From the NCBI GenBank assembly GCA_050230475.1, contig JBFLGF010000123.1, positions 1 to 62,088 of the forward strand: a stretch of DNA of 62,088 nucleotides. Reading direction: 5' to 3'. Position 1 is the stretch's first letter. Each line of letters starts with the position of its first letter. The stretch comes from Ancylonema sp. Lineage: Eukaryota. Below the pieces are notes generated by a model. The model searched no databases and was not told the DNA's origin. It saw nothing but the letters and a program-made list of their open reading frames with translations. Below, in pieces: positions 17,348 through 51,227 of the stretch. The position numbers were made by a program, and so were the translations under genes.

Positions 17348-17550
17348 TACCGTGAACCCTTGATATAGTGACACTCGATGTAGTGACAGTCACGATATAG
17401 TGACATTTTTTTTGCCATTTTTCTAATCCTATATACAAACCCACTCTGTATAGTGACATTGGCTATAGTGACACACGTTATCGTGACCAAAAAATCCCGG
17501 AGTTTACTACACAGATGCCACTCTACAGTGAACCTGGTCTAGATTAAACT
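17348..17550. mobile_element. MITE family C, truncated left part
   Basis: Collinear with the left part of 38798-39346 (gatatagtgac repeats; ttttctaatcctatata.aaacccactct). Confidence 0.75.
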
Positions 17551-21021: not shown

Positions 21022-21300
21022 CCTAGTACAGTCGATTGTTGCCTGGTCAAAGAATCTACTGGTATTGAAACTACTTCGTCAACTGCCAATCATATCTAAG
21101 CATTCTGCCACAACAACAAGTTCTTATCGACACTTGTACCAGATGGCCAAGTAATCATTGAAACAAGGACATCGGCCTGCAGCCGGCCTGCCGCCTGCCT
21201 GCAGCCTGCATTTGCTGAATAACGACAAAACTAAAGCTAAATTATTCCCGGTATTGCTAAAATCGATACGACAAAAGTTCACAGCCCCTAAAAACTAACA
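21022..21300 (-). mobile_element. Partial solo LTR of the copia family at 47090-51227
   Basis: Near-identical to 47247-47525 and 50945-51227, ending in ...cccctaaaaactaaca. Confidence 0.92.
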
Positions 21301-22398: not shown

Positions 22399-23933
22399 TC
22401 ATATTTCATATTGGGCTCCCATAAGGAACTTGTACTTGCTTGCATCACTTGCGAAATAGCTCTCCAGCTAGAACCACAACAAAAAAAAATAATGAGTCAG
22501 TCTCTCATGATGTGAGTAATAATCAGACGGATTGGGAGATTATGCGATGACTGTCCTGAACAAAATGCTACAATGGAGAACGCAAATGAAATAGCAAACA
22601 CATAACCTGGACAGGCTACATCCGAGTCCACGTAAATGATTTTTTTGACGAGCCACCTTGACGTTTACCTGTCGTGCGCTTACCTGTTGTGCGCTGAGAG
22701 GACATCATGTGCTTTCACATAGGGTAGTTGTGGACAAGATGTCGCTGTATAGATAAGATGTCCCTATATGTGATGGACAGAACGTCCCTGTACCACATGC
22801 AAGAACCAAGTACTCCGCATGCTGACAAAAAAAGGCAAAGTAAATGCGAATGCGAATGCGAATGCGAATGCGAATCCTGTTCATGGTTGAAGTTGGAGGG
22901 CTTGGCGAGGGCAAAGAGCAGACCTGAGGCAGAGCTGCGAAATGTTTCAGGAATGCGAGGATGTTGGGGCACGTGTCCAGGCTGCCTGGCACCAGAGTGC
23001 GCTGGAAGTCTGCAGTCTCGTACAAAAGAAATTCTGGCCACGTCAGCTTAGACCCTGAGGTAAACGCTATGTCGTCAAGGTACTCCTCAATGCGCTTGGC
23101 ATGGTAGAACCACTTCTCCTTCTCCGTGGCGATAATCTCTGCATGGTTTTCTTTGTATGGAACACCTGCGCGTGGATAAGGGCAAGTATGGAGAGGCAAT
23201 GAAGGCTCGAAAAGTGGTGAACTATAACGACACAAGTCTTCCTGGAAAAAGATTACCTGCTCGGTAGAAAGATAGTAGGTTGCACATTCATGTTTCATTT
23301 TTTTGCTTGCTTGCACTTTCAAGTCAGCTCAGCGTGTACCTCATCTTGTGGTTGATAACTGTACGAAAAATGAGCACACTTTGCTGCCACCAAGAGCATG
23401 CTCGGAATGATGGAATGCGATTTTTAGTCAGGGACGCTGTCTAATAGAGGGACACAATGAATAAAAAGGTCGGACCAGCTGGTCCAAAAAACTTGCGGTG
23501 ATTGCAACTGCGAATGCGATAAGATTTTGATTTTTTGAACGTATGACGATTACATACTTATGTAATAATAAACCAGCAGGTAGGGAGGAAATTTACCATA
23601 CATAGGGCACCTCCAGTCATTGAGGACGTCAGCGAACATATCCAGTGTTGCTGCCATCTGTGGTGTGGAGCCACCAAGACCAAACTTATTCCCAAGGTAC
23701 CGCAAAATGGCGAGACTCTGTGTGAGTTTGAAATCCCCGTCAATCAGGTAAGGCAGGTTCGGGACGTCCAGTCCAAGGTTGAATTTCTTATCACTCCACA
23801 CCAGCTCAGGGGGAGTATCATACGCCAAGTTGTCGAATTTGGCGTCTACAAAATGGAGTAACATGCGACTGGGAGCTCCCCATCCCCGGATGGACCAGTA
23901 ACCAAGCTGCATCGGTTTCGAATCCGTCGGCAT
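22399..23933 (-). CDS. Glutathione S-transferase, Mu-class-like
   Basis: Exons 23933-23597 (alternative ATG 23975), 23165-22924, 22467-22399. Motifs LGYWSIRG, KFNLGLDVPNLPYLIDGDFKLTQSLAILRYLG, KLTWPEFLLYE, FAALPQ|LESYFAS. Confidence 0.9.
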
Positions 23934-24248
23934 CTCTGCCAGCCTGACTTTTTTGTCGGGCCTCGATTCTGACATGAAATGGCAAGTCACAGAATTACGT
24001 GCAGACCTGTCGCAAACTCCTCCTTGATGCGGAGACTAGCAAATTCTCACAGTTCAAGATGTTGGTACGAAATGTCCAGACTTGAGCTCTTCAAGACACG
24101 TGGCGAGCTGATAGTGGCGGACTGTGAGCGTAATTCTGACGCTGAAACGGAGGCAGAATTTGTTGCTGACTTGCCGCTTTCTAGAAAGTCGGCATGCATG
24201 ACAGTTTCTGCCAAGATCCGGCAAAACGGCCGGGACGGGCAGAATGAC

Positions 24249-27791: not shown

Positions 27792-29427
27792 TCAAGAAAC
27801 AGATTGTGTTTCAGATGGCACTGGACAAGCCGGATCTTTGCCGACGTCGTCAGCAACGCCACCCTCGTTCCCAGCTCTCCTTGAGGTGCGCTTACATGCT
27901 CCTCCATAAGTTGAGACAGCCGACCTCTTCCTGGAAGAGTTTTCGAGGCTCTTGGCCTTCAGGGAGGAGGACCGGACTGGGCGCCGTAACCGAGCTGAGA
28001 CAACAGCATCCAAAACTCCCGGCTCCACACTCAAAGAAGATTCACCATGGACGCTCTGTTTCACCATTCTGCTGATACGCTCAATGTCCATCTCTTGCAC
28101 CGGCTTCAGTAAGAAATCCTCAGCACCTGTCTCTAAACACCTGCAGAAGCTTGCACAGAAGGGGTCAGGAAGACTAGATAGATTCGGAGTGCTGCAGCCT
28201 CCTCCAGAAAACTTCCAAGCATTCTTGACAGAATCATAAGACATACTGAATGATTCTTTCGTATCTGAACTTCACCCTAGCTGCTTTCTGCTGACTGGAG
28301 ATATGATATGCAGGACTTGCAATGCGTATTTCCTTGCAATATCCCACAGCACTGGTTAGGGGGACATGAAACAGAAGCCTGTGCATGAAGCTCACGGAAA
28401 CGCAAACGATGTCGCCTGGAGGGGTCTGCATGTTGTGTACCTGGTCACGTTTTCGCTGATGTTTTCGGAGGACATGATTACCATGGGTATTGCCCGGAAA
28501 CTTGCAACTTCCTGCAAAAGTAACACAACGACATTGAATTGCTGCCAGAGGAAGCATATAGCTTTCAGATACCGCCGGCAAGGCGGTTTGGTAGCGAGCT
28601 ACTGTGGTACCAACTAGCACCTCAAACCTCTAGTCATCCCCACAGATGTTCATGTAAGAAGAGGCAAAAACTCGATGTTGAATCGTATCTTTTAACGAAG
28701 ATTCTTGATAACGCGCAAAGACCTCTTGACCTTCTAAACTTCTATCCTTCTCAGGAGGATCCTTCAAGGGGCTTTCAGGGGGTGTCTCTAAACATTCCAA
28801 TCCGTCTCCGATCGCGGGGACATGATATGATACTCCTCATGTTACTGTTGTGGTGTAAAGTACCTTCACTCGCTTCAATAGCTCCTCTCCGCTCATTCCC
28901 GGCATGTGAAAGTCGCTAATGATCAAATGGAACGGAGGAGAGAACTGCCACCGAAGAGCCAACGTCCATATTAGCATTTCCTAATAAAGAGGCGATAGGC
29001 GCCTGCAACACCGGACATCAGACTACATCGCAATGACTGGCGTACCTGTTGTCCAGTGGAGCTGTCATTTGAAAGCCCAAGGAGCTCCAACGCTTTATAC
29101 GCACTGTTCGCACAAGTGACTGCAGTAGAACGAAAAAGATATCACTCAACTGCAAACAGGGCCCTTCAGGCAGACAGGAATATTAGATATTCGACAGTCT
29201 TACAGTTGTCTCACGGGGAGTGACGGAGTCGTTATTTGCCAGAAAACCCTACACTGATGCAACACCTGCAAAATCCGTCCAAAACAGCGGCTTCTACCTT
29301 TGTAAGCTTGACGTTGCAGCAATCGCACGACGAGCGTTCTGTCAAGCGTACTATCGTCCACTGCAAGTACACGAAGTTCTGGAAAAGACGTTGCACTCGG
29401 AGTCTCAACAAGAGCCATTGAGCGCAT
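27792..29427 (-). CDS. Type-A two-component response regulator (ARR-A-like receiver protein)
   Basis: Exons 29427-29298, 29119-29046, 28944-28864, 28511-28441, 28140-27792. Motifs VLAVDDSTLDR, ALELLGL, LIISDFHMPGMSGEELLKRVK, IPMVIMSSEN, CLETGAEDFLLKPV; short C-terminal tail with no Myb/GARP domain. Confidence 0.93.
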
Positions 29428-31728
29428 GTGCGTGGAAAAGCGTGCCTGCCTCTTCTGATAACTATGTCGGAAACAACTGGATCAGTCAGTCGATATGGTA
29501 AGCGCCATGTCGAGAGCTAACAGAGCATGAAGTCCGCTCCTTCAACAGTCTGTGTGGTGATGACAGGAACCACTAAATCAATAATGTATCAGTATCAACC
29601 ACGCTAGAGGCGAGGCACTGGGAGATACTAAATCGCCCCCTGAAACCCAAATCTGACACAATGGAAGGTAAAGATCGTCGAGTCAGCAAATCAAAAAACG
29701 CGGTGCAGGTTCAGATGAGCGTTTCAGATGGCTGGCCCGGACTTACGGGCACGCGGAACTGGCTGGATTTCGTCCATAGATTTGGTTCCAGCCGATTGCA
29801 TGACAACCGCGTTAGCGTTTGAAACGACGTGTGAACAGAACATCGACCGGAGAGCGGGCAGAGGAGGCCGGCGTTAGATTCTAGAGATCGATGCGATCTC
29901 GATTTGATTCTAGATGGTGCAATCTCGATCGTACTTCGAATATGCTTCAATGCATAGATGTACACGCCCGTAAAAATCTCCGCCGAGCGCCGCTTGCGGG
30001 CGGTCTCGCCCGCAGGCGAAACGCGGGCGAAAATGTCCACGCGGCGTGTAAAAAAAATAAAAAATGCTAATATCAACTACATGAAAAGAAAGACGCATTT
30101 TATTCAAGCACGATGGGAACCCCATCTGAGTACAACACCAACGTTATCGTACCAACCTAAAGGAACAGAAGAAGGAAAACAACCCCAATCCTAAAACAAT
30201 CGAGCAACAATCCTTAACTCTGCTGACGACAATAACACCTACATAGTTTCAACTACATCAACTACATAGTTTCAACTACATGATTTTTTTTCTTTTAAAG
30301 AATATCATAAAACATCTAGAAGCTATGCTTTTTTTAACTTGCTTTCTTGAAATCCCAAAATTCAGCGCGCCCGGCACGGGCGGCCGGGCGGCGCCCGCGG
30401 GCGGGTATATCAATGGTCCAAGCTGTGAAACGCTGAAAACGCTTCAGGCTGAATCGGTGTTGATATCGCGTCAGGTAACTGTCAGAGCTGTAGTTATTAC
30501 AATTGTACGGATAAGCAACGGACTTTGTAACGGACGAATGTTTTCCAGAATCAAGCTCCCAGCTCCCACGCAAATCTGTAAAATCCATATCACAAGTACT
30601 TATTTTAATATCTGCCACAAAAGGCGCACGTGCCATATGGACGCGTGAATTTGTACTGCATGTTTTGTTGTTGGTGAATTTCCTTGCACACGGTCCTTTG
30701 TCGTCTTGGAGAACCCTGTCTGGCACGATGTGCCCGATCAAATCTTACGTAGAATCTTCCGATACGCTGCCATATGGCAGGCATGTGGGAACGACGGATG
30801 AGGCGCAGCCACCGAGTCGGTAGCTGCGCCTCATCCGTCGTTCCGGGTCCCACGGTGGTGTGCCCGCTTCCGGCCAGGGCGCTTTTCTTAGAGTCGCAAC
30901 TCGATACACCGTTTGGGCACCGTATATGATTTCTCGAAACGATTTAAATTGTCAATGATACGTAAAAACGATTCCGGAAATCCGATAGTTATGATCAATG
31001 GTTTTCGGAAATGATCCCGGAAAAACTACATGTCAATTGAAACAAACAAAATGGAAAAAAAAAATGAATGAATGTCAATGATTTTGGGGAATGATTTTAC
31101 ATTTAGGTATTAGTTAAAATGATTGATTTCATATTTCAATAATTTATTAGAAGTTATTGTGGGTGCTGAGTGCATGGAATAGTCCTCATAGTTGTACGGT
31201 AACTTGTAACCCCCCTTAGGTTTCACGCCCGTCTCTGCATGCGGGCGAAGCGCCGGGAGGGCACGGCCCGGCCACTTCCTTAAGGACGGGCTGCATGTCG
31301 AGATTTCACCAGCCCAAAGACAAACCCAAGGGTGAAAGACATTGATACTTATAATTTTATCCATGCGCCGTACTCGTACATAATAAGAAACCTACTACGA
31401 TTCTTTCGCGCATGTGTCAAAACTCACTGGCGTGTTACGATGTTGAATAACAAAGAATTTTGCACAACCACACAAAGGGATACAAATAAAGAAGGGGATG
31501 CAATTAAAAAGAGGGAATCATGGCGTGGTGATAACTTTCAGATGTCACTAATAAGCCCTAGTATTTTGAAATGAAATCCATGCGACGTACGTGTATCACC
31601 ATAACTATACACACCATTGCTATACACTCATAAGTACAATCATTCTATCAGGTTGTGATCGTTGACAAATGATGGTTTGTGAGTGAATTCGGTCTAAGAG
31701 TGACTCTTGTTGTAATCAAGTTGCGTGC

Positions 31729-32879
31729 TATCGAGGAATGCCAAATTTTTTATCGGCATTAGCCGCTCTTGTATGGCGGCGAGCGCCAACTTCATGTAGC
31801 AGCTGACGCTGGCCTTGTATGGCGACTGGCCGGCCACACAACATTTTTGTTTTCAGCTTTTTTTCGGTCAAAAGGGTCACACTCATAATTGGGGCGACCC
31901 ACTTACTTGACCCAAGCGAATTATCGTTACTACTCCGTGACGAAAAATCTCGACCCGGGTAAATACTATTTATTATACCGTTACCCGGCAAGCGAAGTGA
32001 CCCACCCCAAACCAACGCGTATTTTTAACCGTACCAGTACCGTACTAACCATGGTGTTGTAAATGCTGAAATCCTCGGGTGAAAGAAGCGGAGGGTGTCG
32101 GCTCTAAATTTCGGCCCTCTAGCAACCGTTCAGAGCTCGACACATGTTGTCAGTCTTCAAATGTATTGTTGGACTTCGTCGCTGGTCGTCATGAAAAGAG
32201 GTCCGTTCGACATACATGAGTTTAGAGATTCCGAAATGATAGAAGCGAATGCAATAATAGTACTGTGCACATCAAAACAAATATTGTTGTGATGGTTATG
32301 TGTTATGCAAAAGATAAAACTATCCACATGATTTAAGTGTCACAACCTTCCCGTACAGTCACCCCCCCAAACTCCACATTACGATGCTAAATTGTTCTAT
32401 ACGAAAATTTGTAAGAAAACAAAACAATGACGATCGATTTGACCGCCACTGGACCACGATTGAATCTTGCGCGACCGGGGTTTAAGAACATGTGTATTTT
32501 GAGCGAAAGACCGAATATAATCCAGTTTATGATGCTGACCGCTATGCCGGATATAACCCATTTTATGATGTTGACCACTATGCCGGATTCGAAATTTATG
32601 GTGTGACCCACCCCCAAAAAATGATTTTTTTTATTCGACACGACACACCATTTTCTTAATTATTTGCGGGTCATCATTATGTATGGCCACTACGGTATTT
32701 CCCAAGGTGCTCCCTCGCCATTCAAATCCGACGGTAGCCGCCATACAAGGCCAGCGGTAGCCGCCATATAAAGCAGGCGTTAGCCAACATACAAGCCAGC
32801 GCTAGCCGCTATTTAAAGTTGGCGCTCACCGCCATATAAGAGCGGCTGATGCCTTCAACAAACTAGGCATTTCTCTATA
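31729..32879. mobile_element. Long-TIR (about 100 bp arms) foldback/MULE-like element containing a family A MITE end
   Basis: 31729-31830 (gaggaatgcc...agccgctcttgtatggcggcgagcgccaactt) is the reverse complement of ~32780-32879. Family A TIR ends at 32697. No clear TSD. Confidence 0.6.
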
Positions 32880-33806
32880 ACAAAGTAGGCATTCCTTTAT
32901 TCGTCCATATCTATTGTTGGATTTGTACTTGCATCCTACTCCCACTTCATGTATTGCATGTGTAAGGATCGCGTTTCTACGAAATCCCAAGGCCTCTCAC
33001 TCGGCATCGTCATCAATGCCACGAACAATGCCATCTAGTACTTCTCTTTTACGTGTCCGTCTTTTTTTGAATGATACCTTACGCAAAAAAAACTCTCTAG
33101 GTCATGTAGGTTTGCCGCAAGCTACTGCCTTTGGATGATCTTCTAAGGCGGGCCCGTCAAATGGAGCAATGCATGCCATCATTTTGCCGTATACCCGTGC
33201 TTTTTCGGCTTGGACGATTGGACGAGGATGACTGACTAAACAAAAAATACACTTGCGATTAAAGTGCCGAATCGAAGATTGTATCATAATGTGAACGGAT
33301 CAAAAGGTGGCGCGAATGCCTCTATGCCATAAAAACGTCCAAAACGAGGTCGATCGCGAAACCCCGATCGCCAAATCTAAGATAATATAAAAATCCGAGC
33401 GGAAGGGTGACGAGCAATATCGATTGCAACAAAAAATAATCATTTTCACATTTATTTCACATTTCAGTGTGTAATAATGTTGTTCTCGTATGCAAAATAT
33501 AGATGGAGTAACTTCCTACATTTGTTGCTCATGCCCACACGTTATCCACTTGCAAGCAATCACGTGCTATCTTGAGTACTCGCCACAACCGATTCCATGC
33601 AACATCAACATGTTGCGGTGGATAACCTTTGCTTACGGTTTTGTTGAGTCGAGGCATACGCACACGAGCAACGAGATACACATCATCGCTTTTGTGCATG
33701 TGCGTGCACACGTGACATCACGCAATGGCAATAAACGCACCGTGACTAATCACCGGACGCTGATTATTCACATTCGAAAAATGGTTTTTTTTTCCTTCTC
33801 GAGAAA

Positions 33807-36800
33807 CTACACATTTTCCCTCCGCACTTCCTCCACGACCCTCGCTCCCACTCTATCCAGCGACCGCACACTTACAGTGGCTTGCAACTTCCCTTGTTGT
33901 AAGAACGCCTCTACCATGGCCTGCCCTATCACTTCCCCCTTCTCCACACTGTCTGTTATCGCTACCGACGTCGGCCCAGCTCCACTGATCGCGCACCCAT
34001 ACGCGCCCGTGACGCTCGCAGCAACTTTGACGGCGGAGCATCCGGGGATGAGTTGACTTCTTCGCGGCTCCACGATGAGATCGGAAGCTGCATCGAGCAA
34101 GACACGGCACGTGAATAACCGAACCTCTTCACATCTCTCCTTGTCAAGGTTTTGCATCCGGAGCTCTACATTCGTAACGGTACGGGGGACCATCATGATG
34201 CATTGCAATATTGCATATCCCAAACGAAAAACTCAGAACCCCCCCCATAAAACAGTAAAAAAGGGAGGGGGGGGCTTTGCCGAAAGATATATATATTGTT
34301 ATTGTTATTGTTATTGTTATATGCTATTTTTTTTGGACAGCGTTCTTTTAGAGAGGTTCCATTGTATAAAAAACCAGAGCGGGTCTTGCGGCGGGCCCAG
34401 ACAACTAGTATATATTGAACCAATGTAGCGTGGGATCCCCATCCTCCGATACCCACATCCACAACCCATTCCTGATCCTCAACTTTCTCCCACCGCCCTC
34501 GCAACGCACAAGAATTGCTTTCACTCACCCAACGCCGCCCCTAGCAAGCTCGCATTCCCCGTCAGTATTGCAGCAACCAGAGCCGCCGCTTGACTGCTGT
34601 TGGCCACGTGCGATTTCATACTCACCTACAACCCGCAAAGAGACAAAATGGTGGTCGATATTGAGCGTTGCATGCCTCCTTCGTACGGCGTCTTTAGAAC
34701 TCAAATCGTTTCCTGTACTGTCAAAATATTCTTATATCGAGGTTTGAGGGTTTGTACTCAACGGGTCGATTCCATACTATCGCACAAAGAAACTGGGGCC
34801 CCACTCTGTATGTACGATAGTGGTTTATATTCATCTCAGTTCTACTAGAAAGAATGAGTACACTACAAATAGTTTTCAGAGATGTAGGTTTTTTTTTTTG
34901 TTGTTCTTTTCACAAAAAGAACCCTCAAGGTCCCTCCCCACAAAAAGAATCCCCACACCCAACAACCCTAACAACCCTAACAATCTAACAATCTAACAAT
35001 CTAACAACCTAAAATCTAATTCTCCTATCCTAGTTCTGCGAACACCCCCCACCGACTACCACTTCCCCACACACCCAAATTTTTTATTTTGCAAAAAAAC
35101 GGAAAACCCCCCCAAGATCACTACCATCCTCAAGCACACAACCCTCCCCAACAACTTATCTCACACACACCCACTCAGGAGCGTTTGTGCATAAGCAAAT
35201 CCGTACATAACATATCTCTGATATTTCCAACATCAGCATCTCTGTGCGGGTAGCACAGCCCTCATCGCGAAAATGATAACATCATAACACAAAGCCAACA
35301 TAACATTATAACATCATATCATCATAACATCATATTACAAAGACATCATAACATCATAACATCATAAACTCAAAGACATCATAACATCATAACATCATTA
35401 CATCATAACGTCATAACATCATAACATCATAACATCATAACATCATACTACAAAGACAACATAACATCATAACACAAAGACAGCATAACATCATACCATG
35501 GTAACACCAAGACAACATAGCATAATAAGTCAAAGACCCACCTCAGTGGGTAGCGCGGCCCTCATGGCCTTGGTAGGCGCCTCAAACGCGGGCGTGGCGA
35601 CCACAAAGAAAAGGTCGCGGTCTTCCGGGTACGGTAACCGCAGAATCTCCAGGGGGTCGTAGCTGCGGATGAGCACAAACCCGCCCAGCAGAGCGGGTCC
35701 CACGTTATCCGCGTGATACCCGCTAACCGTGGCCTCGGATCGGAGACCCGCCACGACGAGGTCGTCTTTGGAGAGGGGGGAACCGAAGAGGGCATTCACC
35801 TGGAGACCAGGGATACCAGGGATGAGGGGGAAGGGGGGGGAGGTATAGTGAAACCTGTCTTCACTAATACTGTGCTGATGAATAACCTGTGTTGCTTATA
35901 GAATGACTTCCACCCGATTTCGGGTTATCATCAACCATTCTTGATTGATATTTTTTCCCGGTGATGACAGTATGAAATCAGTTAGGTTCGACTGTATATT
36001 GAATTAGAGGGATTTTGGGGGACACACACTGGTTGTTGTCTATTCTCCTTCCCACCAGTGTGATACAACTGTAGAACCGTCCACGGCACTGACCTGAATT
36101 CTAGACAGCCACACATGTCTGTCCTCTATATCCACCCCCCCCCCTCCCCCTCCCCCCCTCCCCCCATATCATGCCAGGTGGCGCCATCCTCACCGCACAG
36201 GCCGCGGCTGCCGCACTCGCCGCGCTGGACCCCAGCCCGCTGCCAAGCGGCAGACCCTTGTGCAACGTCAGTTCTACCCCCCACGATTTCACCCCCAGCA
36301 GCTCCAGGGTGGCCCCTGCAGCGATCCCCACGCAGTTGTCGCCAGCCTCAAGACTCAGTTTGCCGCCGTCGCCGGTGATGGATACGATGCGGACGCTACC
36401 CCCAGGGACGGAGTCGGACAGCTGGGCGGGGGGGGGGGGGGGGGGGCGCAGAGGGGAGGGAGGGAGGAAGAAGGGAGGGAGGGAGGGAGGAGGGGAGGGG
36501 AGGTGGGTGGGGAAGGGGGGGGGGGGGATGAGGGTGAATGTCGTATTGAGCGATATTGGGGAATGGGAGTGCAGGTCTGAACATAATCCGGACGAAACCA
36601 CAAGAGGTGTAGTTGAGTGCTCTAACCCTCAATACCACTTTCTGTGTGCGATGATGATTGTCATACTCGAAAATTGGAAACCCTAAAAACTCCAGGATTT
36701 TTAGTCGAAAGGACCTCCTACAGGGTTTTGAAAACCTTCGAGTTTCATCCCCTTGCTCGAGCAGTATCGCCCCCCCCAATGAGCCCAAATATTTGATCGA

Positions 36801-38297
36801 TGATAGCTTCAGGGCAGAATACCTGTGACGAAGGATGATACTTCTCCCTTGGTCCTGTTCAGACTACTACAGTGTAACCTGTCTAATGGAATAATGTCTA
36901 AAGGAATAACCTCTCTAAAGGAATAGCAAATTCCGGTCCCAAAACCGGAATTGTTAGGAACCGTCCCTGTCTAAGTGAATAACCTGTCTAAAGGAATATT
37001 ATTTCCCGGTCCCGACAGTATTCTTTTAGACAGTTTTTACTGTATGTGCAATATGTGAAAAACATCAAGAATAGGATGGTACTGTTTTTTCCTCCTGGTG
37101 CCACCTGGCGCCCTCTCCCTACCTCGCACCTCTGCAATGACGTGGTCCCCCAACCCCTCCACCGCACATCCCAGAAAGTCAAACCCCGGACCGAGGGTCG
37201 CCACTGTAGCGGGGGCGAATGCCTTGACACGTGTGAACAGCGGCTGGGGTTCAGAGGCAGTGAGGGGTTTGAGGGGGGGGAGAGCAGTCTCTGTCTGCAC
37301 GGCGCAAGTCACCTGCGGGGTTTGAGAAATAGGGTTCAGGTTCAGTACAGGTCAGGTTCACATTAGCTTCAGGTTAGGTTCAGGATAGGCCCATGGATTA
37401 CGTAATTAGGACGGTGGGCCAAGCTGCTGCAATGTTCATGTAAGTGGAGAGATTGGGAGGCTAGAGGGTGGGGGGTTGGGGGTTGGGGGTTGGAGATTGT
37501 GGTGTGCAGGAGAAGGAGGGTCCGGGGGGGGGGCAGTTGGCCGCGAGATGGGGGATGGGGTGTTGGAGTTTGGGCGGGTTTGGGGGCTGGGTGTTGGCGG
37601 GGTGGGAGGTAGGTGGGTTGTGGGGTTGGCGTCGAGGGGTTTGTGGTTTCGGTGCCGTTCATCACATAAAATTAGGGAGCTGGTGGTGCTTTCACGCTGT
37701 ACACCTGTAGGATGAAGTGTGTGTATAGAACAGCCCCATGGCTCGCACAACAGGGTGAGTAAGTCAGACTTTGTCGATGTTGCACTCTTGTATTTGCCAG
37801 TATTTCAGGGTTTTATAGAAGGACGTCGGAAGATAATGTAGAAGTCCAAGGAGACATTCGAGACTCCACATAGTGCCCTAAACTTAAAACCCTGAAACTT
37901 ATGTGTTCTTATCGTTGGCTACAGAGATCAGATTTCCGGAATACAAGCCGTGCTGAATCCGGCCACGTATCCTGATTCCTATTTTAAAGTTTTGTGGAGA
38001 TTATTCATCGCAGATATTAAGTACCAATGGTGCTTAATGGTTCATTTAAATCCATCAGGAGGGCTCTGGCCTATTTTTGGCAAGGGCGAAGAAAGTTCAT
38101 ACCCTGAATCTGGTCTTGGGTGATGCTCCTTGGACAGGTCGACAGCTTGTAATCGCAGACAGCTGCTGGGCGGCACCAAGAAAATGGTTTCTCCTGGAGG
38201 TGGACACGTGGCACCACCTCGGTGGGGCTGACAATCCGGAGGTGGAACATGTAGCGCCAAGAGCCACGGGGCAAGTTTCTAGGGCCGTAGCTGCCAT
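33807..38297 (-). CDS. HSK: Homoserine kinase, plastid-targeted (GHMP kinase)
   Basis: Exons 38297-38103, 37312-37130, 36421-36194, 35799-35542, 34625-34529, 34087-33807. Motifs APATVATLGPGFDFLG, KGLPLGSGLGSSAASA, HADNVGP, ISGAGPT. Confidence 0.96.
35277..35525. repeat. (CATAACAT)n-type intronic minisatellite
   Basis: Directly visible in an HSK intron. Confidence 0.85.
36868..37044. mobile_element. MITE family B, intronic in HSK
   Basis: TACAGT...ACTGTA; reverse-complement homolog of 10902-11082. Confidence 0.85.
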
Positions 38298-38797
38298 AGA
38301 GGACAACGTGAAAGTGCAGCTGCGGAAAGCGAGGCAAAACTCGCTGTTTTTTAACAAACTGAAACGATAAGTTGAGTTTAGTGGGATGAAATCAGCCAGC
38401 CAGTTTTATATATTGTAAATAGGCTTTGATGGAGTCACACTCTTTCAATCTAAGCAAAACCAATGTTGCAGTGTCGACTGCGGTAAGTCAACTTTACAAC
38501 TTCGTTATTGAATATCAGGTCTGCTTTGCTGCAAGTCGGGACAAAAACCCCAAGGATCCGTATTTGTGAAGAATGTCCTTTCCGACAATGTGCATAGTCT
38601 TTCCTTCAAGTACCTCTCGCTAGTTGCTACAGATACGTCAGCTATCTAGCGATGCCGTTCACCTGCCTCTTGCTTTCGCGCAAAATTCGGCGCGAAATAA
38701 ATCGCGACCAGCACTTGTATTAATGTACACCATGTCAAATATGTGTACAGGACGTAAGTTTTAATATAAAGATCGATATACCGCCGGTACTCGCCTG

Positions 38798-39346
38798 TAC
38801 AGTGCAGTCTTGATATAGTGACAATTGCGATATAGTGACATTTTTTTTGCCCTTTTTCTAATCCTATATAAAAACCCACTCTATATCGTGACAATCGCTC
38901 TAGTGACACACGTTATAGTGACCAAAAATTCCCAGATTTTTGTATTGCGATGTCACTATACGGTGAAACGTGTCTAAATTTATACTGTGAAAATTAGTAA
39001 CCTGTCTATTTTAACGAATACTATTCCTCCCGAATTGTTTTTACCCGAAATGTGACGCGTGAATTAATAACCAGTCTAATATCTTTTTTGTTTGATAGTT
39101 CCAACAATAGTCATGTAGACAAGTTTTACTACAGCGTGAGGATGTTTTAACAAAAGCCGTTGAGATGAGCCACCTCCGTTAAAATTTATCGACCTGAATT
39201 TCACTTTCTCTCGATATAGTGGCATTTTCCTATTGTCGCCCTATCAAATGTCACTATACAGTGTATAGTGACAGCCCTAGCATTCGATATAGTGACATGA
39301 AATCCCTATGTCTATAAAATTGTCACTATATCGAGACTGCACTGTA
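38798..39346. mobile_element. MITE family C, full length, between HSK and PII
   Basis: TIR tacagtgcagtcttgatatagtgacaatt / aattgtcactatatcgagactgcactgta. Confidence 0.9.
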
Positions 39347-39419
39347 CTTTGTTCCGGATTCACGGCGCCGCATGCGACCTTCCGATTCGTCAGGCGCCGT
39401 TTTTAAACACACGTATGCC

Positions 39420-39620
39420 CGTACTGGCACGTGGCATAGAGCCACATCCAATCATTGAATACTTGAAAAACAACGGCCAATAGAATATAATTTATTTGCC
39501 ACACAGGCACAACGTGACCTGTTGGATTGCCTGGCTGGCTGCACGTGCTCTCCCTGGTGGGAGGCGCTCAACCATATTCACGGCGGCAATTATCCGATTG
39601 TGGCATGCCACGTGAAAACC
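39420..39620. promoter_or_regulatory. Putative PII promoter with G-boxes and CCAAT boxes
   Basis: Three CACGTG (~39428, ~39542, ~39609) and CCAAT (~39448, ~39477), just upstream of a candidate 5'UTR intron donor (gtaagt, 39662). Confidence 0.45.
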
Positions 39621-40155
39621 GCTCGGTTATCGAGAAAGGGTTGTTCACTTTCAGTCCATCGGTAAGTCTGTCTGTAATACCCCACCACAACTGCGAATGT
39701 GTTGCTGAATCGTGTATCGATCCCCAGTCGAAGATCACGTGGAGTTTAGAGTAACGTGAAGGTAATAGAATTTCGTATATAGTGGAAGGAAATCAGGTTG
39801 AGGTTGACCGAGTAGCGAAAACGACATTGAATGGCGTTGGTGACATTGTCAGTCGTACAAAACTTTCTCCTTGGTAATAAGTTATCGGGGCGAGGATGGT
39901 CTCGGAATGCTTTAATGAGCAAGCGACATTGATGTATCTACGCCTGAACTGCATTGCGCACATTTTCGGCCAATGCAGGAGCTGCGACAAGCCAAATTTG
40001 GTTGGAATGTCGAATGATACACAAACATTGAGATCTTGTGATCGGACAGCGAATTTAACCAGTCACTCGTGCCGTTCCTACATGCCTCCTCAGGTTTCAT
40101 CACGGCAGACAAGTAAGGACCGGCGCTCCCGCTGTCTTCCGTCGCAGCCGCCGTC

Positions 40156-43100
40156 ATGGCCGCGGTACAGCTGGCAGTCCGCTCTGTGGCCATTGGTGCG
40201 GCCTGTTCCAGCTCCGGGACGTCAGCTGCGCCAAGGCGCTGCCACGTTTCTGCCTCCTTGAAAAGTCCCTTTTTGGGAGCCACTCCGCAGCTGCCAGCTG
40301 TCCAAAGCTGCCGACCTCTTCCGTCTGTGGGGTATCAGAATGCGTTCCGCGTACGGGCCTCCGCTGACAGCGGGGCAGGGATTGACTTGGAGGACATCTC
40401 GAAAAGTGAGGCTCTCTGGCTCTGTTGACTTCTTTGGTCAAGGTGATGATTGCACCACAAACGCCGTGAGCAGTACCTGATTTCTCGCACCTGATAGGAA
40501 ACAGCCAACGGGTAATGTACCAGCCACGTGTCGAAATCGTGACCCTCAGCTACTCTTGAATGGAGATGAGAAGATGACAGTCCGCCTCACGTAGGACATG
40601 AGGATGACGTCATATGGAATTGTCGATGGTGATGCATACATTATCTCTCTTCCAGACCCACGTGTGACATCACCACGTGACATCACCTGGTGGATGACTG
40701 AAAAAGGGGGGGGGGGGCTCAAACCAGAGCAGAGTAAAATGGAAGCCAATTTCGAACTTCGAATTTCAATGTGGTGCCTCGTCAAACTCGGTTATCAAAA
40801 CACATCTTAACCATGCAGTCAGTGTCCCGTCCCCCGCCCCCCAACCCTCGATGGTGCAGCCCTTGTCCCCGCTGCGACGTTCTACAAGATTGAGGCAATT
40901 ATTCGCCCCTGGCGTCTGCAGTTTGTCGCAAAGGTGAGGGATGGTCGTTGCATACAAGAAGCCGGGAAGTGGTCCCAGGAAGCTTCCGGGAAAGCACGGG
41001 GAGTGGTTTTGTGTGTACCCTGTCTCCTGAAACAAAACGAAAACAAACAGAAAGTTATTTGGGACACAAAACCCAAAGTGAAAACATTCAGGAGAATCGT
41101 AGTGTGAGATTATGTCGAAGATCCGAGATTGGAGATCTTACAACGAAAATTTCATACCAGGGTTTGGATCGTGGGTTCTGATTTTGTCTTTTGTCTTTTA
41201 AAGTGTGTCCAGTCTTGTTTTTGTCGTCGGACTCTTTTTGTTTTCTTGGATGTGGCGTCAGCACCGATCCTGAACCCTACAAAAAACACAAATATCACAT
41301 GAACATGATCCTGAACCCTTCAAAAAAAAAACATAAAGTCATATTAACACGATCCTACAGAAAGGGGAAAAAAAGGAAACACGCACGGGAAAAAAAAAAA
41401 AAAAAAAAACTTGAAGAGGCCTGATGTTAGGGCCTAATTAAAATACACAACTTAGGGGCCAACTTGAAGGGTTACAAGTGGGCGAAGATTTGAGGTATAT
41501 AAAGGAGACATGCATTTTTTCCCCCTCTCTTTTGTGTTTCCTTCCCCCCCCCGCGTTGTTTTTTTTTCCAGAACATTTATCTGTCATAGCCCAAAGTCCC
41601 TCCCAGTTCCCAATCCTTCTCAACTCGCACCACCTCGTCCCCAAAAACCGTTTCCCTTTTCCTCATTTCTCCACGATTTCTTTCCTCTTTCCTCGTTGGT
41701 CGAACAATTCCTAGATGCCCTCAACGTAGCTCATCCGCCCCCCTGTCTGCCCCCCCCTCCCAGGCTCTCCTCCAGGTGGGTATCCGCGGAGTGACCGTCT
41801 CTGACGTCAGAGGGTTTGGCGCTCAGGGAGGGTCGAGAGAGAGACAGGCTGGTGAGGGAGGGGGTGGGGGGGCAGGGGGGCGGGGGGGCGGGGGGGCTGG
41901 GGGGTTGGGAGGGGGTCAGGGCTGGGGAGCTGGCGATGACACTTAGTGTTGTCGGATGTCTGATGTCTGATGGGAACATTTTAGACTTAGAATCGCACTC
42001 GAAAAGGGGGAGACGGAGTCAGTTTGGGGTCTGGTTTCTGGTCGTCTTGTAAAAAAAGGGCATTAAAAGAAAAAATCGGGTGCAAAACGGGTATCCGATG
42101 TTGTCTGGAGGCTGCAGGGGGGAAGGAGTGGGAGAGGGGGGGGGGGAGAGAGAGACAGAGGAGGTTCTTCCGGGAGATGTGGCCCATGTTTCTGTGCCAG
42201 GTGGCGCTGTTCTCACTTGCCACGTGTCCTGTGGGTGTCGCAGGATCCGAGTTCACGGACGACAAATTTGTGGTCAAGTCCAAACTCGAAATCGTGGTCA
42301 CCTACGAACAGGTAAGGAGAATCAAGGACTCAAGGAGTACCCCCCAGGGGGCCCCCCCCTCCCACATTGGACTGCTGGTCACTCAAAATGCAAATGGGGG
42401 AGGAAATAAAATAGAAGAACTAAGATTTCTTATATTTGATGTGTAAAAAGACAGGGGTGGATGCGAACTACGATCTCAGAAACTCCTCCACTGGAACCGA
42501 TTGATTTTTTTATTCCTCCTGATAAATAAATTTAGTGTGTCTATCAGACCTCTTTGATTTGACGAAATCTAAGTTGACTGGATACTGAATCTGGTAATTG
42601 TATTCCTGTGTGTATGTATGTGTAGGTGTATGTATGTATATGTATATATGTATATGTATATATGTATATATGTATATGTATATATGTATATGTATATATG
42701 TATATGTGTATATGTACATATCTATGTGTGTGTGTCTGGTGGAAATGAACTTTGCTTCCAATAAACTAATGTATAAACTCGTTCCGTTCTCCATCTTTCC
42801 CTCCACCCATACGTATATCATGGAACTCAATATGGATAATATACTTTTTGTCCTACCCAAACCAGACATAAATCTGTGCCAGACATGAATGGTATCAATG
42901 GGGAAGTCCACAATGGAAGTTATGAAATCTAAAGTACACCGAAACCACTAGAGTATCCCGGATTCCCGTATAAGATCTTGTTCGTAAGAAACACTTGTCG
43001 GTTAAGATTGTACTTTTTTTCCCGTTGTTTTTCTCCGGGTTTTGATACTTCCACTACAGTCAACCCTAGGCATCCTAGGCTCCATAGGCGTCCTTCTGGT

Positions 43101-44765
43101 CGGCCAGTAGAGGGTGTGCCCTGAGAAAGGGGTGAAATCTGTAGGATTGCCTTTACAGGGGATGTGCCTATGCAGAGGGTGCATGTTGAGAGAAAAAACT
43201 ATAGAAACTGCAGAAGGTAGGAGAAACATTCGATGATTGAAACTACTTCCTCTGCCAGTTTCTGGTTCTTAAAGCGAGGCAATGAGCACGTGCGATTTTT
43301 TAAGGTATACTGTACTGTACTACCTACCTTGCTTCCCGACCCTTGTCCGGAGTCTATCGACGTCCCCGCCTCCCTCCGCCCCCCCGCAAACAGTCATTCC
43401 TACTCCCCCCAACCCTTCACCCCCCCACCCCCTGCCCCCCTTGCCCCCTGACCCAGACCCCAGACCCCAGACCCCAGGCCCTTACCGCAATTGATTCACT
43501 ATTCTATACTTGATACTGAGACCCGATTTCACATTCATATGTGATCGACAATAATGCCTTTTTATATGTGGAGCGGTACGTGTTGATAATTGCAGATGTA
43601 CAATGTCCTCTGTCTAAATCAGTCGTCACGGTAGGAGTCAAGACAGGTTTTTCTTTCATTTAATAATCACGAAATACATCGAAGATGGACATCCCTCCCA
43701 CCTGTCACCGAAATAAGCTTCCCCACTGACTGGGTGCGCCAGTGAGGTCCTGCCACCTGTCCTCAAATTGGTCCTGCCACCTGTCCCGTCCAGGTGGAGG
43801 CCGTGATCGAGACCATCATCGCAGAGGCGAGGACGGGAGAAATCGGAGACGGGAAGATTTTCGGTGCGTGCTCTCGAGTTTGTCTGTCCCACACACATAA
43901 TTCTACTCCCAGTACCGTTGTCTACCTAACAACTTACAACCACCCCACCTCACACACGTGTGAATCAGAAGAAAAGGAAGGACCTGTCTCTGGGCAGGGG
44001 TGACATCCCCAGGACCTCTACGTCGCACACTGGTTGCAGATCCAGTTTTTTTGACAGCGGATTCATTTCGGGGGGGGGTACCGATTAACTTGTCAAGGCA
44101 GAGGGGGTCTGATGGAGATTTTCCTTCTGCTTTCTCCCTCCTCCTCTTTTCCTTCTTCTCCTTCTTCTCCTTCTTCTCCTTCTTCTCCTTCTTTTCCTTC
44201 TTCTCCTTCTTCTCCTTCTTCTCCTGCCCCTCATTCTCCCTTCTCCCCACCTCCCGATTCTGGGTGTCTCCAAAATGAGACGTCTTTGATTTAAAGCCTC
44301 CCTCGCTCGAAGACTTGCTCAATATGTACAGCTGCCAACGCACACGTGTCACGCTTCACGGTCTCACGTGTCTCAACCACGTGCACGAGAAGTCGAGGGA
44401 ACTGACTGGCTGAATGTTGGGTGTGACTTCTGCCGGTTTTGCAGTATCCCCCGTGGCAGAAGTCATCCGTGTACGGACAGGTGAGAGCAGGAGGGGTGCG
44501 TCATCGTTTGAATCTGGTTTCCCATGTGCCTCCCCACTAGTTATTACGTATCTACGGACGACAGGCGCAACTCTTTTCGTACTGAAACTTTTTACTCAGA
44601 TTTTCTACCGCTGGGATGGGAGGTGATATGGAGAGAGTCTGGCGGGGTCCCGAAATGGTTCCCTGAAAAGAGAGACAAGCTTTTGAGGTTGCAGGGGAGC
44701 GCGGTGTAGAAGCGGAACGGATGGCTGGAGGGCGAATGGAGCTCCTGTCGAGCAAGACCGAATGA
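40156..44765 (+). CDS. GLB1: PII nitrogen-sensing protein, plastid
   Basis: Exons 40156-40405, 40860-40933, 41764-41851, 42244-42311, 43794-43863, 44445-44480, 44695-44765. Motifs FYKIEAIIRPWR, GIRGVTVSDVRGFGAQGG, GSEF, ARTGEIGDGKIF, VIRVRTGERG..AERMAGG. Confidence 0.97.
42610..42735. repeat. (TATG/TA)n microsatellite in PII intron
   Basis: Directly visible. Confidence 0.85.
44148..44225. repeat. (TTCTCCTTC)n tandem repeat in PII intron
   Basis: Directly visible. Confidence 0.85.
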
Positions 44766-47089: not shown

Positions 47090-50000
47090 TGTGAGTGCTT
47101 TCTTCTGCCATCGATGCAAGAATAAAGCACAATTCTCTCAGACAACTCTTGAATCGACAGATCACGTCATTACAAACGTTCACACAACAAAAGTGCAACT
47201 TTGAAGTAGAAAAGTCTGATTACAGAATTCAGCATACAAGCTCAGACCTAGTACAGTCGATTGTTACCTGGTCAAAGAATCTACTGGTATTGAAACTACT
47301 TCGTCAACTGCCAATCATATCCAAGCATTCTGCCACATCAACTAGTTCTTATCGACACTTGTGCCAGATGGCCAAGCTAATCATTGAAACAAGGACATCG
47401 GCCTGCAGCCGGCCAGCAGCCTGCCTGCAGCCTGCATTTTCTAAATAACGACAAAACTAAAGCTAAATTCCCGGTATTGCTAAAATCGATATAACGACAA
47501 AAGTTCACAGCCCCAAAAACTAACACCCCCTCCCCGGGTACTTTTGTATTCCTCCAAAAACGATAACCAAAACGATATCGATTTTACAAAACATAAGTCG
47601 ACAAAAAACTCACTAAATAAACTGATCAATGAACCATCTACAATTATTTTGCATACACCAACCCCCCAGATCACAATTCTTCTTCAACGCCTTGAGAGAC
47701 AGTGGTTTTGTCAACATATCAGCACCTGGTCTTCATTCTTGACAAACTGAGACTGATCTTTTTCTTGGACACCCTCTCTCGAATGGAATGATACTTGATC
47801 TCGATGTGTTTGGAGCGACAGGATGTTGATCTCGATGTGTGTGGAGCGCTTGTGAAAAACAGGATTCTCAGCAAGATTCAAAGAACTCTCATTGTCTCCC
47901 AGCAATAGCACACCCCCCCCACCAAGACCCAACTCCTATTGCATCTGGCTCAAATAAATGGCCTCATTTCCAGCAGCACTCAGTGCCAAATACTCACTTT
48001 CACAGCTTGAGTGTGTACCACTTTTCCAGCTCACAACAGCTCCTCCACGAAGAAAGACATAGCCAGTTCTCCCCTTCCTAGTGTCGACGTCGTCACCATG
48101 ACTAGCATCTGAGTAGCCGATGACTGGCAAATCATCTTTTCTTATACATCAGCGCCCCAAATTGACAGTTCCCTTGAGATATCGCAAAACTCTCTTTACC
48201 CCCTCCCAATGCTTGTCCCCTGGCTGCTGACTGTATCGACACAAGGAGTTAACAGCAGCTGCCAGATCAGGTCTTGTTCTAGAAGTGAGATACAACAAAT
48301 TGCCCATTGCAGACTTGTAGCCCACACCCTCTATTCCAGCAGATTCAGAAGCAGATTCACAGTTTGCAGAAAATTTTACACCCAGCTCAAGAGGGGTAGC
48401 ATCATCAGGATACCATTCTGGAACAACTTCTAGATGATCTTCGTCTTCATCGCCTCCACTAGAATTGCTGACAAGTTCTGGAAGATTTGCACTCTGAGGA
48501 ATAGGGGATCTCGGTAGCTGTGGCAATAGATTTCCCACAGCATCAGGGATCTCTTCATCGACGGAATTTGGATCGTTATAGGCAGGTTGCCCACCTCTAG
48601 AAATGCCCCCTCCGAGACCAACACTACCCCCTCCTGCTCCTTGATCAGCTGCATCCAGATCTGGCCGTGACATTTTTGTTTCTGCAACTGGCTCATGCAC
48701 TCTTGCCTTCTTGCCAATTTTCTGCCCCCTCCACCAGCTTTGCTTGACAGATTCATCGAAGTCTGCATGACCAGTGCCAACGTTGTGTACTTTGTTCGTT
48801 GCAGGATCCCAGACTCGGTAGCAAGGACTGTCGGGATTCCATCCACCTAAAACACCAAGCCAAGCCAGCGCACTCATTTTCCCAGCCCGACACTCATTTT
48901 CCCAGCCCGATCTTGTTTGAGACGAGGAGCTGCATCTTCTTTGCTGCGAAGTATTTCCACCCAGGATTTTCGGCTGTATTCATCGACGAGCACCATGTTG
49001 TACACTGCTTCCCCTATTGATGGTGGATTGAACGGCCCTGCCAAGTCCACCGACACTCTTTTCACCAACTTCTCGTCGAGGATGAGGTTTGTCGTGTGCC
49101 TTCCCCAGCTTGCACCCTTCACAGTTTCGCAGAACTCTTGAGATGCCTCTTTTTAGTCCTCGTACAATATGTTGTCGTGCCACATTTTTTAGCACTCTCT
49201 CATTTGCATGCCCAAGTCTTGTGTGCAGGAGGTTGATTTCGACAGCAACTACAACAGCTTCCCCTTAAGTAAGTTGTTGATGTCGAACCGGTGTGCAGAT
49301 TAGAGTTTTTCGAACTGTCGATGTTTCTTGCAGAGTGCAAACTTGTTGTCCAGATTTTTTGTAAAGTGGAATGATGCCACCAGCTTTTCCACTGCAAGTG
49401 TAAGACCACCCTGCTTCTCTGGCTTTCTGACCGGTAAACAAATTAATGCGCATTGCAGGAATGTACAAACATTTCTTGAGTGTTACTCCTCCACACACTC
49501 CCTCAGTATTCAGCTCAATTGTTCCCCACTGCTTCACTCGCACACTTCCGACCAGATGATGCATGATGACCTCGTGTGGAATGTCTTCGATGATTTTGAA
49601 AAGATTTTTTATGCCCACAAGAATGGTGACTGGAACCATCGTCGAAAAGGAAATCTTTCTCTGCATCATCATCATCTGCAACATTTCCTTCACAAATTTT
49701 GGAGCAACGACAGCTTCTCCATGACCACAACTCTCCTCCTCATCGATTTCACCAACGAAAGCTATTTTTCTCCTAGTGCGTACCCCTTTTCTCCGTATTC
49801 GTGGAGCTTCGTTTTTCTTGTCGAAACATGTTAATTCCACATGACCAATGGCTCCACATCTGCATTCTTCGTTTTTCTTGGAGCAGTCTCTGCTGTAGTG
49901 ACCTGTCTCTCCACAAGTATAGCAGGAATGTCCTCCACTTGATCCATTGCCTCCACGTCTGCCTCCACGACCACCTATGATTCCACGATTATCTGCTAAA

Positions 50001-51227
50001 TACCCCCTGAATGTACCCCTGCCTCCACGATTGTCGATACCACCACCTCTGCCTTGGCTTTATTTTTTTTGTTGCGCTGACCACTTAGCATAGTTTGCCT
50101 CTACAACTAGTGCCTCAGCATCTTTGACATCTTTTTCTTTTTTGTCATCCAGCTCATCCATTCCCATTTGCCCCCAGATCCAGCTGATCCCAGGTGCCTC
50201 TTTCTGTCTATAGTAAAGCTTCTTCAACATGCCGTATTTTGTTCTTGACATGGCCAGCAAACAATGCCATCACCTGGTCTTCTGCGCTGACCTAGAAATT
50301 TTTTTTTATGTACACACTCTCTGATGATCGACAGAGAAATATTCTTGATTTCTCTATCTGGCATCTTTTCATCGATCTTGAAAGAGTTCAGCTTTTCTTT
50401 TGCAATCTGTCGAAGTTCTGGAGACACCTTGTCATACTCCTTTGTCAGATAGTCCCACATCGCCTTTGGATCTCGTTCAAATTGTTCAAGTGATGTAGCG
50501 ATGTCGTCACTGACAAGTTGCATGAGTAGCATGACTGCCTTCTTTGATCTTTTGCGGAAGCTTCGACATCAAGTGTATTCTGCTCCATTTCTGCTTCATT
50601 TGTTGGCCAGTGTTCATCATCATATCTGGCTGTAACCTCAGTTGGAATAGTCTCTGTTACTTTGCACATCTCAAGGCACTCAACATCATCAAGAGTAGCT
50701 GAGGCCTTAGATCTCCATGCTTGAAAGGTAACTTTATCTCCATCCAGAATGCAGTACCGTGCTCTGGATACCACTGTGAGTGCTTTCTTCTGCCATCGAT
50801 GCAAGAATAAAGCACAATTCTCTCTCAGACACAACTCTTGAATCGACATCGACAGACAGATCACGTCATTACAAACGTTGACACAACAAAAGTGCAAGTT
50901 TTGAAGTAGAAAAGTCTGATTACAGATTTCAGCATACAAGCAGACCTAGTACAGTCGTTTGTTGCCTGGTCAAAGAATCTATTGGTATCGAAACTACTTC
51001 GTCAACTGCCAATCATATCTAAGCATTCTGCCACATCAACTAGTTCTTTCTTATCGACACTTGTGCCAGATGGCCAAGTAATCATTGAAACAAGGACATC
51101 GGCCTGCACCGCAGCCGGCCTGCAGCCTGCCTGCAGCCTGCATTTGCTGAATAACGACAAAACTAAAGCTCCCGGTATTGCTAAAATCGATATAACGACA
51201 AAAATTCACAGCCCCTAAAAACTAACA
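47090..51227 (-). mobile_element. Ty1/copia LTR retrotransposon, degenerate internal-deletion derivative
   Basis: LTRs 47090-47525 and 50775-51227 (TG...CA), 5-bp TSD GTCTG, PBS TGGTATCCAGAGC (50773-50761), PPT GGGGAGGGGG (47535-47526). Copia-order remnants: gag zinc knuckle CYTCGETGHYSRDC, protease FDDGSSHH, integrase LHTRLGH/VSVDLAGP, RT end YKSAMGNLLYL..TRPDLA, RNase H GYSDASH/SCESEY/DNES; many frameshifts. Confidence 0.96.

Follow-up and report, generated by a model that had tools for sequence, protein, structure and literature searches.

Homologous predicted transit-peptide exons in divergent HSK and PII genes of a likely streptophyte alga

The 62,088-nt stretch of contig JBFLGF010000123.1 (GenBank assembly GCA_050230475.1, Ancylonema sp.), referred to below as the window, carries head-to-head genes for a homoserine kinase (HSK, minus strand) and a PII protein (plus strand) whose first coding exons, both encoding predicted plastid transit peptides, are homologous to each other. 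The HSK exon (38297–38103, minus strand) aligns without gaps to the start of the PII coding sequence (40156–40350, plus strand), with identity at 34 of 65 amino acids and 116 of 195 nt. The exon coordinates, the ungapped alignment and the count of 34 had been given in an initial annotation made from the letters of the window, and all were reproduced. We lean towards an explanation in which PII tag sequence overwrote an older HSK exon up to its ancestral splice donor, after which the two copies were probably re-homogenised in patches by gene conversion.

Homology of the two first coding exons

Identity by codon position within the exon pair is 41, 46 and 29 of 65. Third positions are the least conserved (29/65 against 87/130 at the others, p 0.003), and 16 of the 34 identical residues are encoded by different codons, which agrees with the many synonymous differences remarked on in the initial annotation. 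For the whole pair, pN is 0.32 and pS 0.67 (dN about 0.41, dS about 1.6), and pN reached pS in 0 of 5000 bootstrap draws; for codons 11–54, dN is 0.25 and dS 0.98. Because dS is near saturation (1.0–1.6) while dN is low, the copy is by this measure old, and both exons have been kept under purifying selection as protein. The dN/dS comparison, which had been suggested as a check, thus speaks for a maintained peptide, and purifying selection is the main ground for taking the HSK first exon as coding.

The local BLOSUM62 score of the pair is 164, compared with a mean of 27 and a maximum of 63 in 20,000 shuffles, in which identities did not exceed 17. Over 66 amino acids the pair scores 168, whereas the two peptides scored against 51 HSK-family N-termini (from the relatives with an initial Met and an extension of sufficient length) gave a mean of 23 and maxima of 35–39. 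A control, another predicted transit peptide in the same window with its ATG at 60599, scored 30 and 26 against the two. The nucleotide match between the exons has an E value of 7e-9.

The homology extends from the ATG to codon 65–66, and 30-nt bins outside this coding stretch match at only 5–12 of 30 positions. Comparison of 500 nt of upstream DNA gave a score of 165, against a shuffle mean of 153 and maximum of 188, that is, no similarity above chance, and alignment of the HSK and PII untranslated regions (UTRs) was also at chance level (p 0.18). The longest identical run within the window pair, which is 59% identical in nucleotides, is 8 nt. The two ATGs lie 1.86 kb apart and the copies are inverted on divergent genes; copying between HSK and PII was most likely local, as the initial annotation had proposed.

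Plastid transit peptides are rich in Ser, Thr and Ala, basic and nearly free of acidic residues, and start with M-A. Both peptides fit this composition, with 23% Ser plus Thr in HSK and 18% in PII, 1 and 0 Asp plus Glu, and 7 and 6 Lys plus Arg among 65 residues. Transit peptides have a cleavage motif of (V/I)-X-(A/C) followed by A; straight after the shared stretch come V-T-C-A in HSK and V-R-A-S in PII, the latter deviating at the last position. In the relevant passages of the two sources, PII of Chloroplastida is described as nuclear-encoded and plastid-localised (PMC7027753), and Arabidopsis HSK as present in plastid-enriched fractions (PMC7650296). We infer that both peptides mediate plastid import.

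All five introns of the window HSK equal in position and phase those of the HSK locus L013, whose introns were obtained by comparison with its transcript L012; both are bryophyte-like by a reading of their sequence and not by tree placement. In L013, too, the Val that in the window comes right after the shared stretch is preceded by a phase-0 intron, whose donor, GTATGA, is also that of the window HSK. Because the five introns are common to bryophyte-like L013, the HSK donor and first-exon boundary are, on this comparison, ancestral HSK features. With intron 1 ancestral, the event would have been a replacement of existing exon content and not a gain. The initial annotation had spoken of HSK targeting as "gained or replaced", and the 5/5 intron match leaves the second of these; it had also supposed that a cryptic donor was recruited, and although the donor GT does stand in register with the PII Val codon, as had been observed, such recruitment is unneeded. 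It is likely that a transit-peptide exon which HSK already possessed was replaced, or else that HSK was the donor.

On the PII side, spliced contigs of runs X4 and X5 (one sample of one study, listed as "DNA?" yet containing spliced contigs) join 40405 to 40860, and join the end of an untranslated exon at 39761 to 40094. The shared peptide therefore sits in a transcribed PII exon that is exon 2: the exon with the ATG is the homologous one, as had been claimed, but its designation as exon 1 has to be given up, since an untranslated exon lies upstream in the spliced contigs. On the HSK side, the X4 contigs give no cover of exon 1 or of the junction 38103/37312, a blank that speaks neither for nor against this splice.

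Further copies and the origin of the shared exon

A profile of the two peptides was compared with 1.84 billion representatives, a search that is blind to full-length proteins clustered by their mature domains, and two matches had E 0.001 or better. P0122 (E 2e-14) represents a different PII: it covers that gene's first coding exon, shares the linker end and continues into the intron. Its ungapped identity is 31/66 to the window PII and 29/66 to the window HSK, and in the three-way ungapped alignment 24 of 66 columns are invariant, with no indel. The other match, P0123 (E 1e-3), is a repetitive open reading frame (ORF) matching 23 positions and was dropped as chance. A word-based protein search with the PII exon at longer lengths confirmed 0 of 724 candidates, although this search is lossy and missed P0122 within its range; with the three-way alignment, 1 of 2569 candidates was confirmed, P0122 itself. 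Scanning metagenomes for the peptide gave 238 pattern matches, of which none was confirmed. A scan with HSK exon 4 kept 80 of 363 loci, none above 69% identity, and neither PII nor the peptide was found near HSK in the 80 loci (E 0.01) or in the 16 plant- or alga-like ones (E 1), several flanks being short; no close relative with flanking DNA came to light in these scans. The mature PII exons are too short for this kind of scan. An atlas comparison, with a best score of 0.79, was uninformative.

Contigs of the window's own sample were searched with the PII exon at 80% likeness over about 34 nt, a setting at which the window HSK exon (59% nt) is itself not picked up. In the deep run X1, the region 40000–40460 drew 6 contigs: the locus itself, 2 other peptide copies, and 3 that match the exon end and the intron start. 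The other copies fall into two types, A and B, counted by hand from the 30-letter loose ends flanking a match of 34–35 nt; run X3 was of small share and gave short pieces only. Type A, present in X1 and in the spliced runs X4 and X5, projects to 40277–40405, and 14 of its 20 flanking residues are those of P0122. Because a type A contig overlaps by exactly 30 nt a contig carrying a PII-like exon end, type A is likely a second PII. The tail of type B (codons 56–65) resembles the window HSK at 6/10 amino acids and 21/30 nt, compared with 1/10 and 14/30 for the window PII, and no piece of the 817-nt type B contig matched the PII exon end; we infer that the HSK-tailed type B contigs belong to a second HSK gene. 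The simplest reading is that a second, diverged HSK/PII pair in the sample, from a paralogous locus or a related organism, also shares the peptide. Contig depths of about 120, 160 and 45 hint at three related sequence sets; such depths do not count copies, and no weight was placed on them. The search for further copies that had been recommended at the outset thus yielded P0122 and types A and B, and the widespread repeat that had been named as a possible refutation was not seen at 80% identity or above.

The further copies form a patchwork. Types A and B agree at 27/30 nt over codons 35–44 but at 16/30 over codons 56–66 (Fisher p 0.003), and the window pair has 17/30 and 9/30 at the same stretches. 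An A-type contig of X1 and a B-tailed contig of X2 both begin, by contig geometry, at projected position 40277, a common start that two copies would show if at least 30 letters upstream of it were identical in both. Among HSK, PII and P0122, three sequences in all, codons 1–34 group HSK and PII against P0122 (9 sites against 4), whereas codons 35–66 show 2 against 8 (p 0.036). Concerted evolution by gene conversion between inverted paralogous segments is a general mechanism. That the tails follow the gene and the inner stretches the locus is the pattern that conversion between inverted copies would give, with moderate support here. Because of this patchwork a single duplication seems insufficient, and with dS near saturation as well, the single captured event of the initial annotation is not borne out; repeated gene conversion between the inverted exons has, in our estimate, slightly less than an even chance.

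In the explanation that we prefer, a recombination or repair event would have copied one first coding exon over that of its neighbour, in frame, from the ATG to R-V. Since HSK and PII are both bound for the plastid stroma, each could be delivered by either tag, and the swap could have been fixed without cost; it would likely be neutral and would imply no shared regulation. The copies would form an inverted repeat able to convert again until too diverged, a point that the window pair, at 59% nucleotide identity, has probably reached. As to direction, a transfer from PII to HSK seems to us the better supported choice, by no means a secure one, because the one peptide carrier retrieved from the database is a PII and because the reverse would need an exact fusion inside the PII exon; the PII origin assumed by the initial annotation is favoured to this extent only.

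Several points weigh against overwriting followed by conversion. Types A and B may stem from a different organism or haplotype within the sample; they are known from 30-letter flanks alone, with their host genes beyond the reach of those flanks, and the contigs were found through a mid-peptide match to PII, which biases that part. The samples are small, and third positions alone lend conversion weak support: the comparison of A with B is 9/10 against 4/10 (p 0.057), and that of the type B tail with HSK and PII has p 0.12. Protein constraint on the F-G-A-A-Q-Q-L stretch could mimic conversion. P0122 resembles type A and may therefore not be outside the event, so that it would not serve as an outgroup for the direction. 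The nearest HSK relative, P0001, has an unrelated N-terminus (score 20–22), but transit peptides ordinarily drift enough to account for this. Since the ancestral HSK exon would have had its end at this R|V, a transfer from HSK to PII is also possible, and older copies of the peptide, below 80% identity, possibly exist elsewhere.

Four other explanations have to be considered beside this one. A single ancient inverted duplication of the PII 5' region, comprising acceptor, UTR and transit peptide, may have replaced the HSK exon with no later exchange, the patchwork then reflecting uneven constraint and small samples. It would agree with a homology that runs from the ATG to codon 65–66, with consistent differences between HSK-type and PII-type tails across copies, and with an acceptor-like CAG 61 nt before the HSK ATG, where the proven PII acceptor lies 62 nt before its own. 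However, the UTRs are at chance level and there are 13 C/TAG sites in the 500 nt upstream of HSK; moreover, the 27 nt over which an HSK-tailed copy matches a PII-linked one without a difference would be hard to keep, given that the window pair reaches 8 nt at most, and we consider this explanation unlikely. We think it somewhat less probable still that HSK was the donor, in which case its ancestral transit-peptide exon would have been placed in frame, at R-V, within the first coding exon of PII. The HSK exon is indeed a clean module bounded by an ancestral phase-0 intron, and there is no PII outgroup among the sequences compared. Against this stand the required exact in-frame fusion within the PII exon, the fact that the sole database carrier is a PII, and codons 44/45–56, where type B is closer to the window PII (32/35 nt) than the window HSK is (24/34), in a stretch selected by the search.

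The pair could also be members of a small family spread over the genome, in which a transit-peptide exon that is mobile or often copied serves several unrelated genes, two of them neighbours by chance. At least 2 further types are present in the sample, and copies below 80% identity are invisible to the contig search; yet only 2 of the 6 X1 contigs on 40000–40460 are other copies, both tracing to PII-like or HSK-like sequence, and the 1.84 billion representatives gave one credible match, full-length proteins clustered by mature domain being outside its view. The 62-kb window contains no further copy of the peptide, its other predicted transit peptide is unrelated, and no terminal repeats or target-site duplications flank the shared exons among the longest repeats listed. 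A miniature inverted-repeat transposable element (MITE)-like element does lie between the genes, 0.5 and 0.8 kb from the two ATGs, and this nearby element drew up to 120 contigs per site in X1, compared with 2 other peptide contigs. Judged by copies with at least 80% identity over about 34 nt, the peptide is no high-copy repeat, and a family of this kind appears quite improbable to us. Finally, the likeness might be one of convergence or common composition without common descent; transit peptides share a Ser/Ala-rich composition, and the other predicted one in the window is, like these, Cys-rich. The scores of 164–168, set against maxima of 63 in shuffles, 39 among the 51 N-termini and 30 for the same-genome control, refute this, as do the ungapped three-way alignment and the nucleotide E value, and we give it practically no weight.

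Gene structures and other features of the window

The features discussed above are listed in Table 1. The HSK gene encodes 413 amino acids in six exons with GT-AG introns and no internal stop, and is intact. Its product has the Pfam domains GHMP_kinases_N and GHMP_kinases_C, and its nearest database relative is P0001, with an identity of about 80–82%. In a tree of 21 proteins the window HSK pairs with P0001 (support 96/92) outside the land-plant groups, on a backbone without resolution. It groups with streptophyte HSK and is, by its domains and intact frame, predicted to be a plant-type GHMP homoserine kinase; the window organism is likely a streptophyte (green) alga. Similarity to the HSK family begins at about residue 60–82, an N-terminal extension preceding the mature domain; relatives of the protein have N-terminal extensions of their own.

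Table 1. Coordinates of the HSK and PII genes and of the element between them (window positions)
Feature	Position	Strand	Remarks
HSK exons 2–6	33807..37312	-	37312-37130, 36421-36194, 35799-35542, 34625-34529, 34087-33807
HSK intron 1	37313..38102	-	790 nt, GT-AG, phase 0, before Val of V-T-C-A; ancestral position
HSK first coding exon (65 codons), predicted plastid transit peptide	38103..38297	-	Left arm of inverted homology; donor GTATGA, phase 0
MITE-like element between HSK and PII	38800..39344	.	30-nt terminal inverted repeats starting CAGTG, TA on both sides; shared exons outside it
PII untranslated first exon, seen part	39730..39761	+	Start further upstream (about 39713); loose ends of spliced contigs X4, X5
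PII intron between untranslated exon and ATG exon	39762-40093	+	GT and AG located
PII first coding exon	40094..40405	+	62 nt UTR, ATG at 40156, transit peptide and linker; covered by X4/X5 contigs, which splice to 40860
PII predicted transit peptide (65 codons)	40156..40350	+	Right arm of inverted homology
PII later exons	40860..44765	+	40860-40933, 41764-41851, 42244-42311, 43794-43863, 44445-44480, 44695-44765

In L013 the HSK gene (L013:7040-8922) has 2 extra introns in the N-terminal extension, if the first Met is used, and 1 in the 5' UTR. A spliced second HSK was seen in run X4 (record 23; window 37130-37233), with 17 differences in 104 nt, and in the ten codons past its exon 2/3 junction 9 of 10 third positions are unlike those of the window; the sample contains at least 2 diverged HSK and PII sequences. 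Single-base mismatches between X1/X2 contigs and the window occur at 37197, 34190, 34885, 35174, 35370, 37575, 39681, 39873, 40134, 41345, 42899 and 42977. At 37197 the window gives Thr at HSK residue 104 and the contigs give the Asn of the family. The window likely has scattered base errors, about one per kb.

The PII gene has seven coding exons and seven introns, encodes 218 amino acids with GT-AG boundaries and no internal stop, and is likewise intact. The P-II domain reaches the Pfam cut-off on one 29-residue exon (at 41764), and a single X4 contig matches five PII exons in order. The product carries a C-terminal extension, which we take to resemble the Q-loop. A role of the C-terminal Q-loop in PII of Chloroplastida is treated in a passage of PMC7027753. 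The start of the first intron in the PII coding region (window 40406-40445) is conserved: over 40378-40432 it is matched at about 90% by the three X1 contigs of the exon end, one of which runs on with a similar donor-like site, and P0122 reads through with nearly the same residues. Use of the downstream donor-like site would add an in-frame stop, and the segment may be a regulatory splice element.

Further high-copy MITE-like elements with TA flanks lie at 36868-37044 (HSK intron 2), 10902-11082 and 17374-17545. Downstream of HSK, inverted arms of about 96 nt and 80% identity with internal 23-nt repeats (31726-31821 and 32788-32882) probably mark another non-autonomous element. A retrotransposon at 47090-51227 has long terminal repeats (LTRs) about 90% identical (47090-47525, 50775-51227) and zinc-knuckle and pol domains, and a partial LTR copy lies at 21022-21300. 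The window is eukaryotic by its introns, MITEs and retrotransposon.

Other genes include an open frame 1973 codons long that has no stop and contains four filamin repeats (665-6586, minus strand), with a resemblance to GEX2-like proteins, exons of a tRNA-binding-domain protein (11462-12602, plus), glutathione S-transferase exons (22705-24035, minus) and exons of a response-regulator receiver protein (27792-28980, minus). The control peptide belongs to 60599-61477 (plus), where a Cys-rich predicted transit peptide is followed by a hydrophobic signal-like stretch in a product of no Pfam family, possibly a thylakoid-lumen protein.

Meaning and comparison with known systems

The origins of transit peptides are rarely visible since these sequences change fast, and the borrowings on record are by genes that had recently left an organelle. 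Two old nuclear genes sharing a tag point to the replacement of a working tag by that of a neighbour, perhaps with continued exchange. If overwriting is true, this would be a rarely seen way of replacing an import tag, and gene order would shape the evolution of targeting signals. The pair would then also be a natural experiment of one peptide with two cargoes, with the 24 of 66 residues invariant over three copies. As a wider proposition, head-to-head neighbours of the same organelle might keep exchanging their targeting exons and so evolve in concert, HSK and PII repeatedly in separate lineages and other genes by the same route in other eukaryotes; we advance this tentatively and think it rather more likely to fail than to hold. 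The functional tie between a nitrogen sensor and an aspartate-pathway enzyme, put forward in the initial annotation, found nothing in its favour: the upstream DNA is not homologous, and the sequences lend no support to a regulatory or physical link between PII and HSK or to a connection of nitrogen sensing with threonine synthesis.

A literature search outside subscription journals listed no title on an HSK/PII transit peptide or on the exchange of targeting exons between neighbours. An angiosperm survey of transit peptides names, in the passages concerned, exon shuffling by unequal recombination as one source and finds many transit peptides on their own exon (PMC7456531). In those same passages substitutions, indels and alternative starts dominate and alternative first exons were not detected (PMC7456531). 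They treat the gain of targeting, whereas the HSK/PII case would be an exchange between two neighbours already targeted.

Closer parallels are the transit peptides borrowed by newly transferred organelle genes, described in parts of PMC8429499, PMC7488351 and PMC4750060: rpl32 and Cu-Zn SOD in Malpighiales, rps7 and thioredoxin m3 in Passiflora and Salicaceae, accD with KASI or LPD2, and mitochondrial rps11 in rice. As in these, unrelated proteins here share a homologous N-terminal targeting sequence on a separate 5' exon and, as the passages on Salicaceae rps7/trx-m3 describe, the copies diverge once separated. In those accounts, however, the recipient was fresh from the organelle and without a tag, and was inserted, in the orientation of the donor, into one of its introns or into a duplicate of it, the exon being shared by alternative splicing. 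HSK and PII are both long-established nuclear genes, a transit-peptide exon was already present in the recipient, and the two exons are separate and inverted on opposite strands, with signs of repeated exchange; an earlier chimeric stage is possible. The inverted arrangement, the short spacer, the patchy identity and the apparent clustering of one part by locus recall the concerted evolution of inverted paralogues. Unlike in that case, what HSK and PII have in common is confined to the 5' coding exon, the two genes being unrelated elsewhere.

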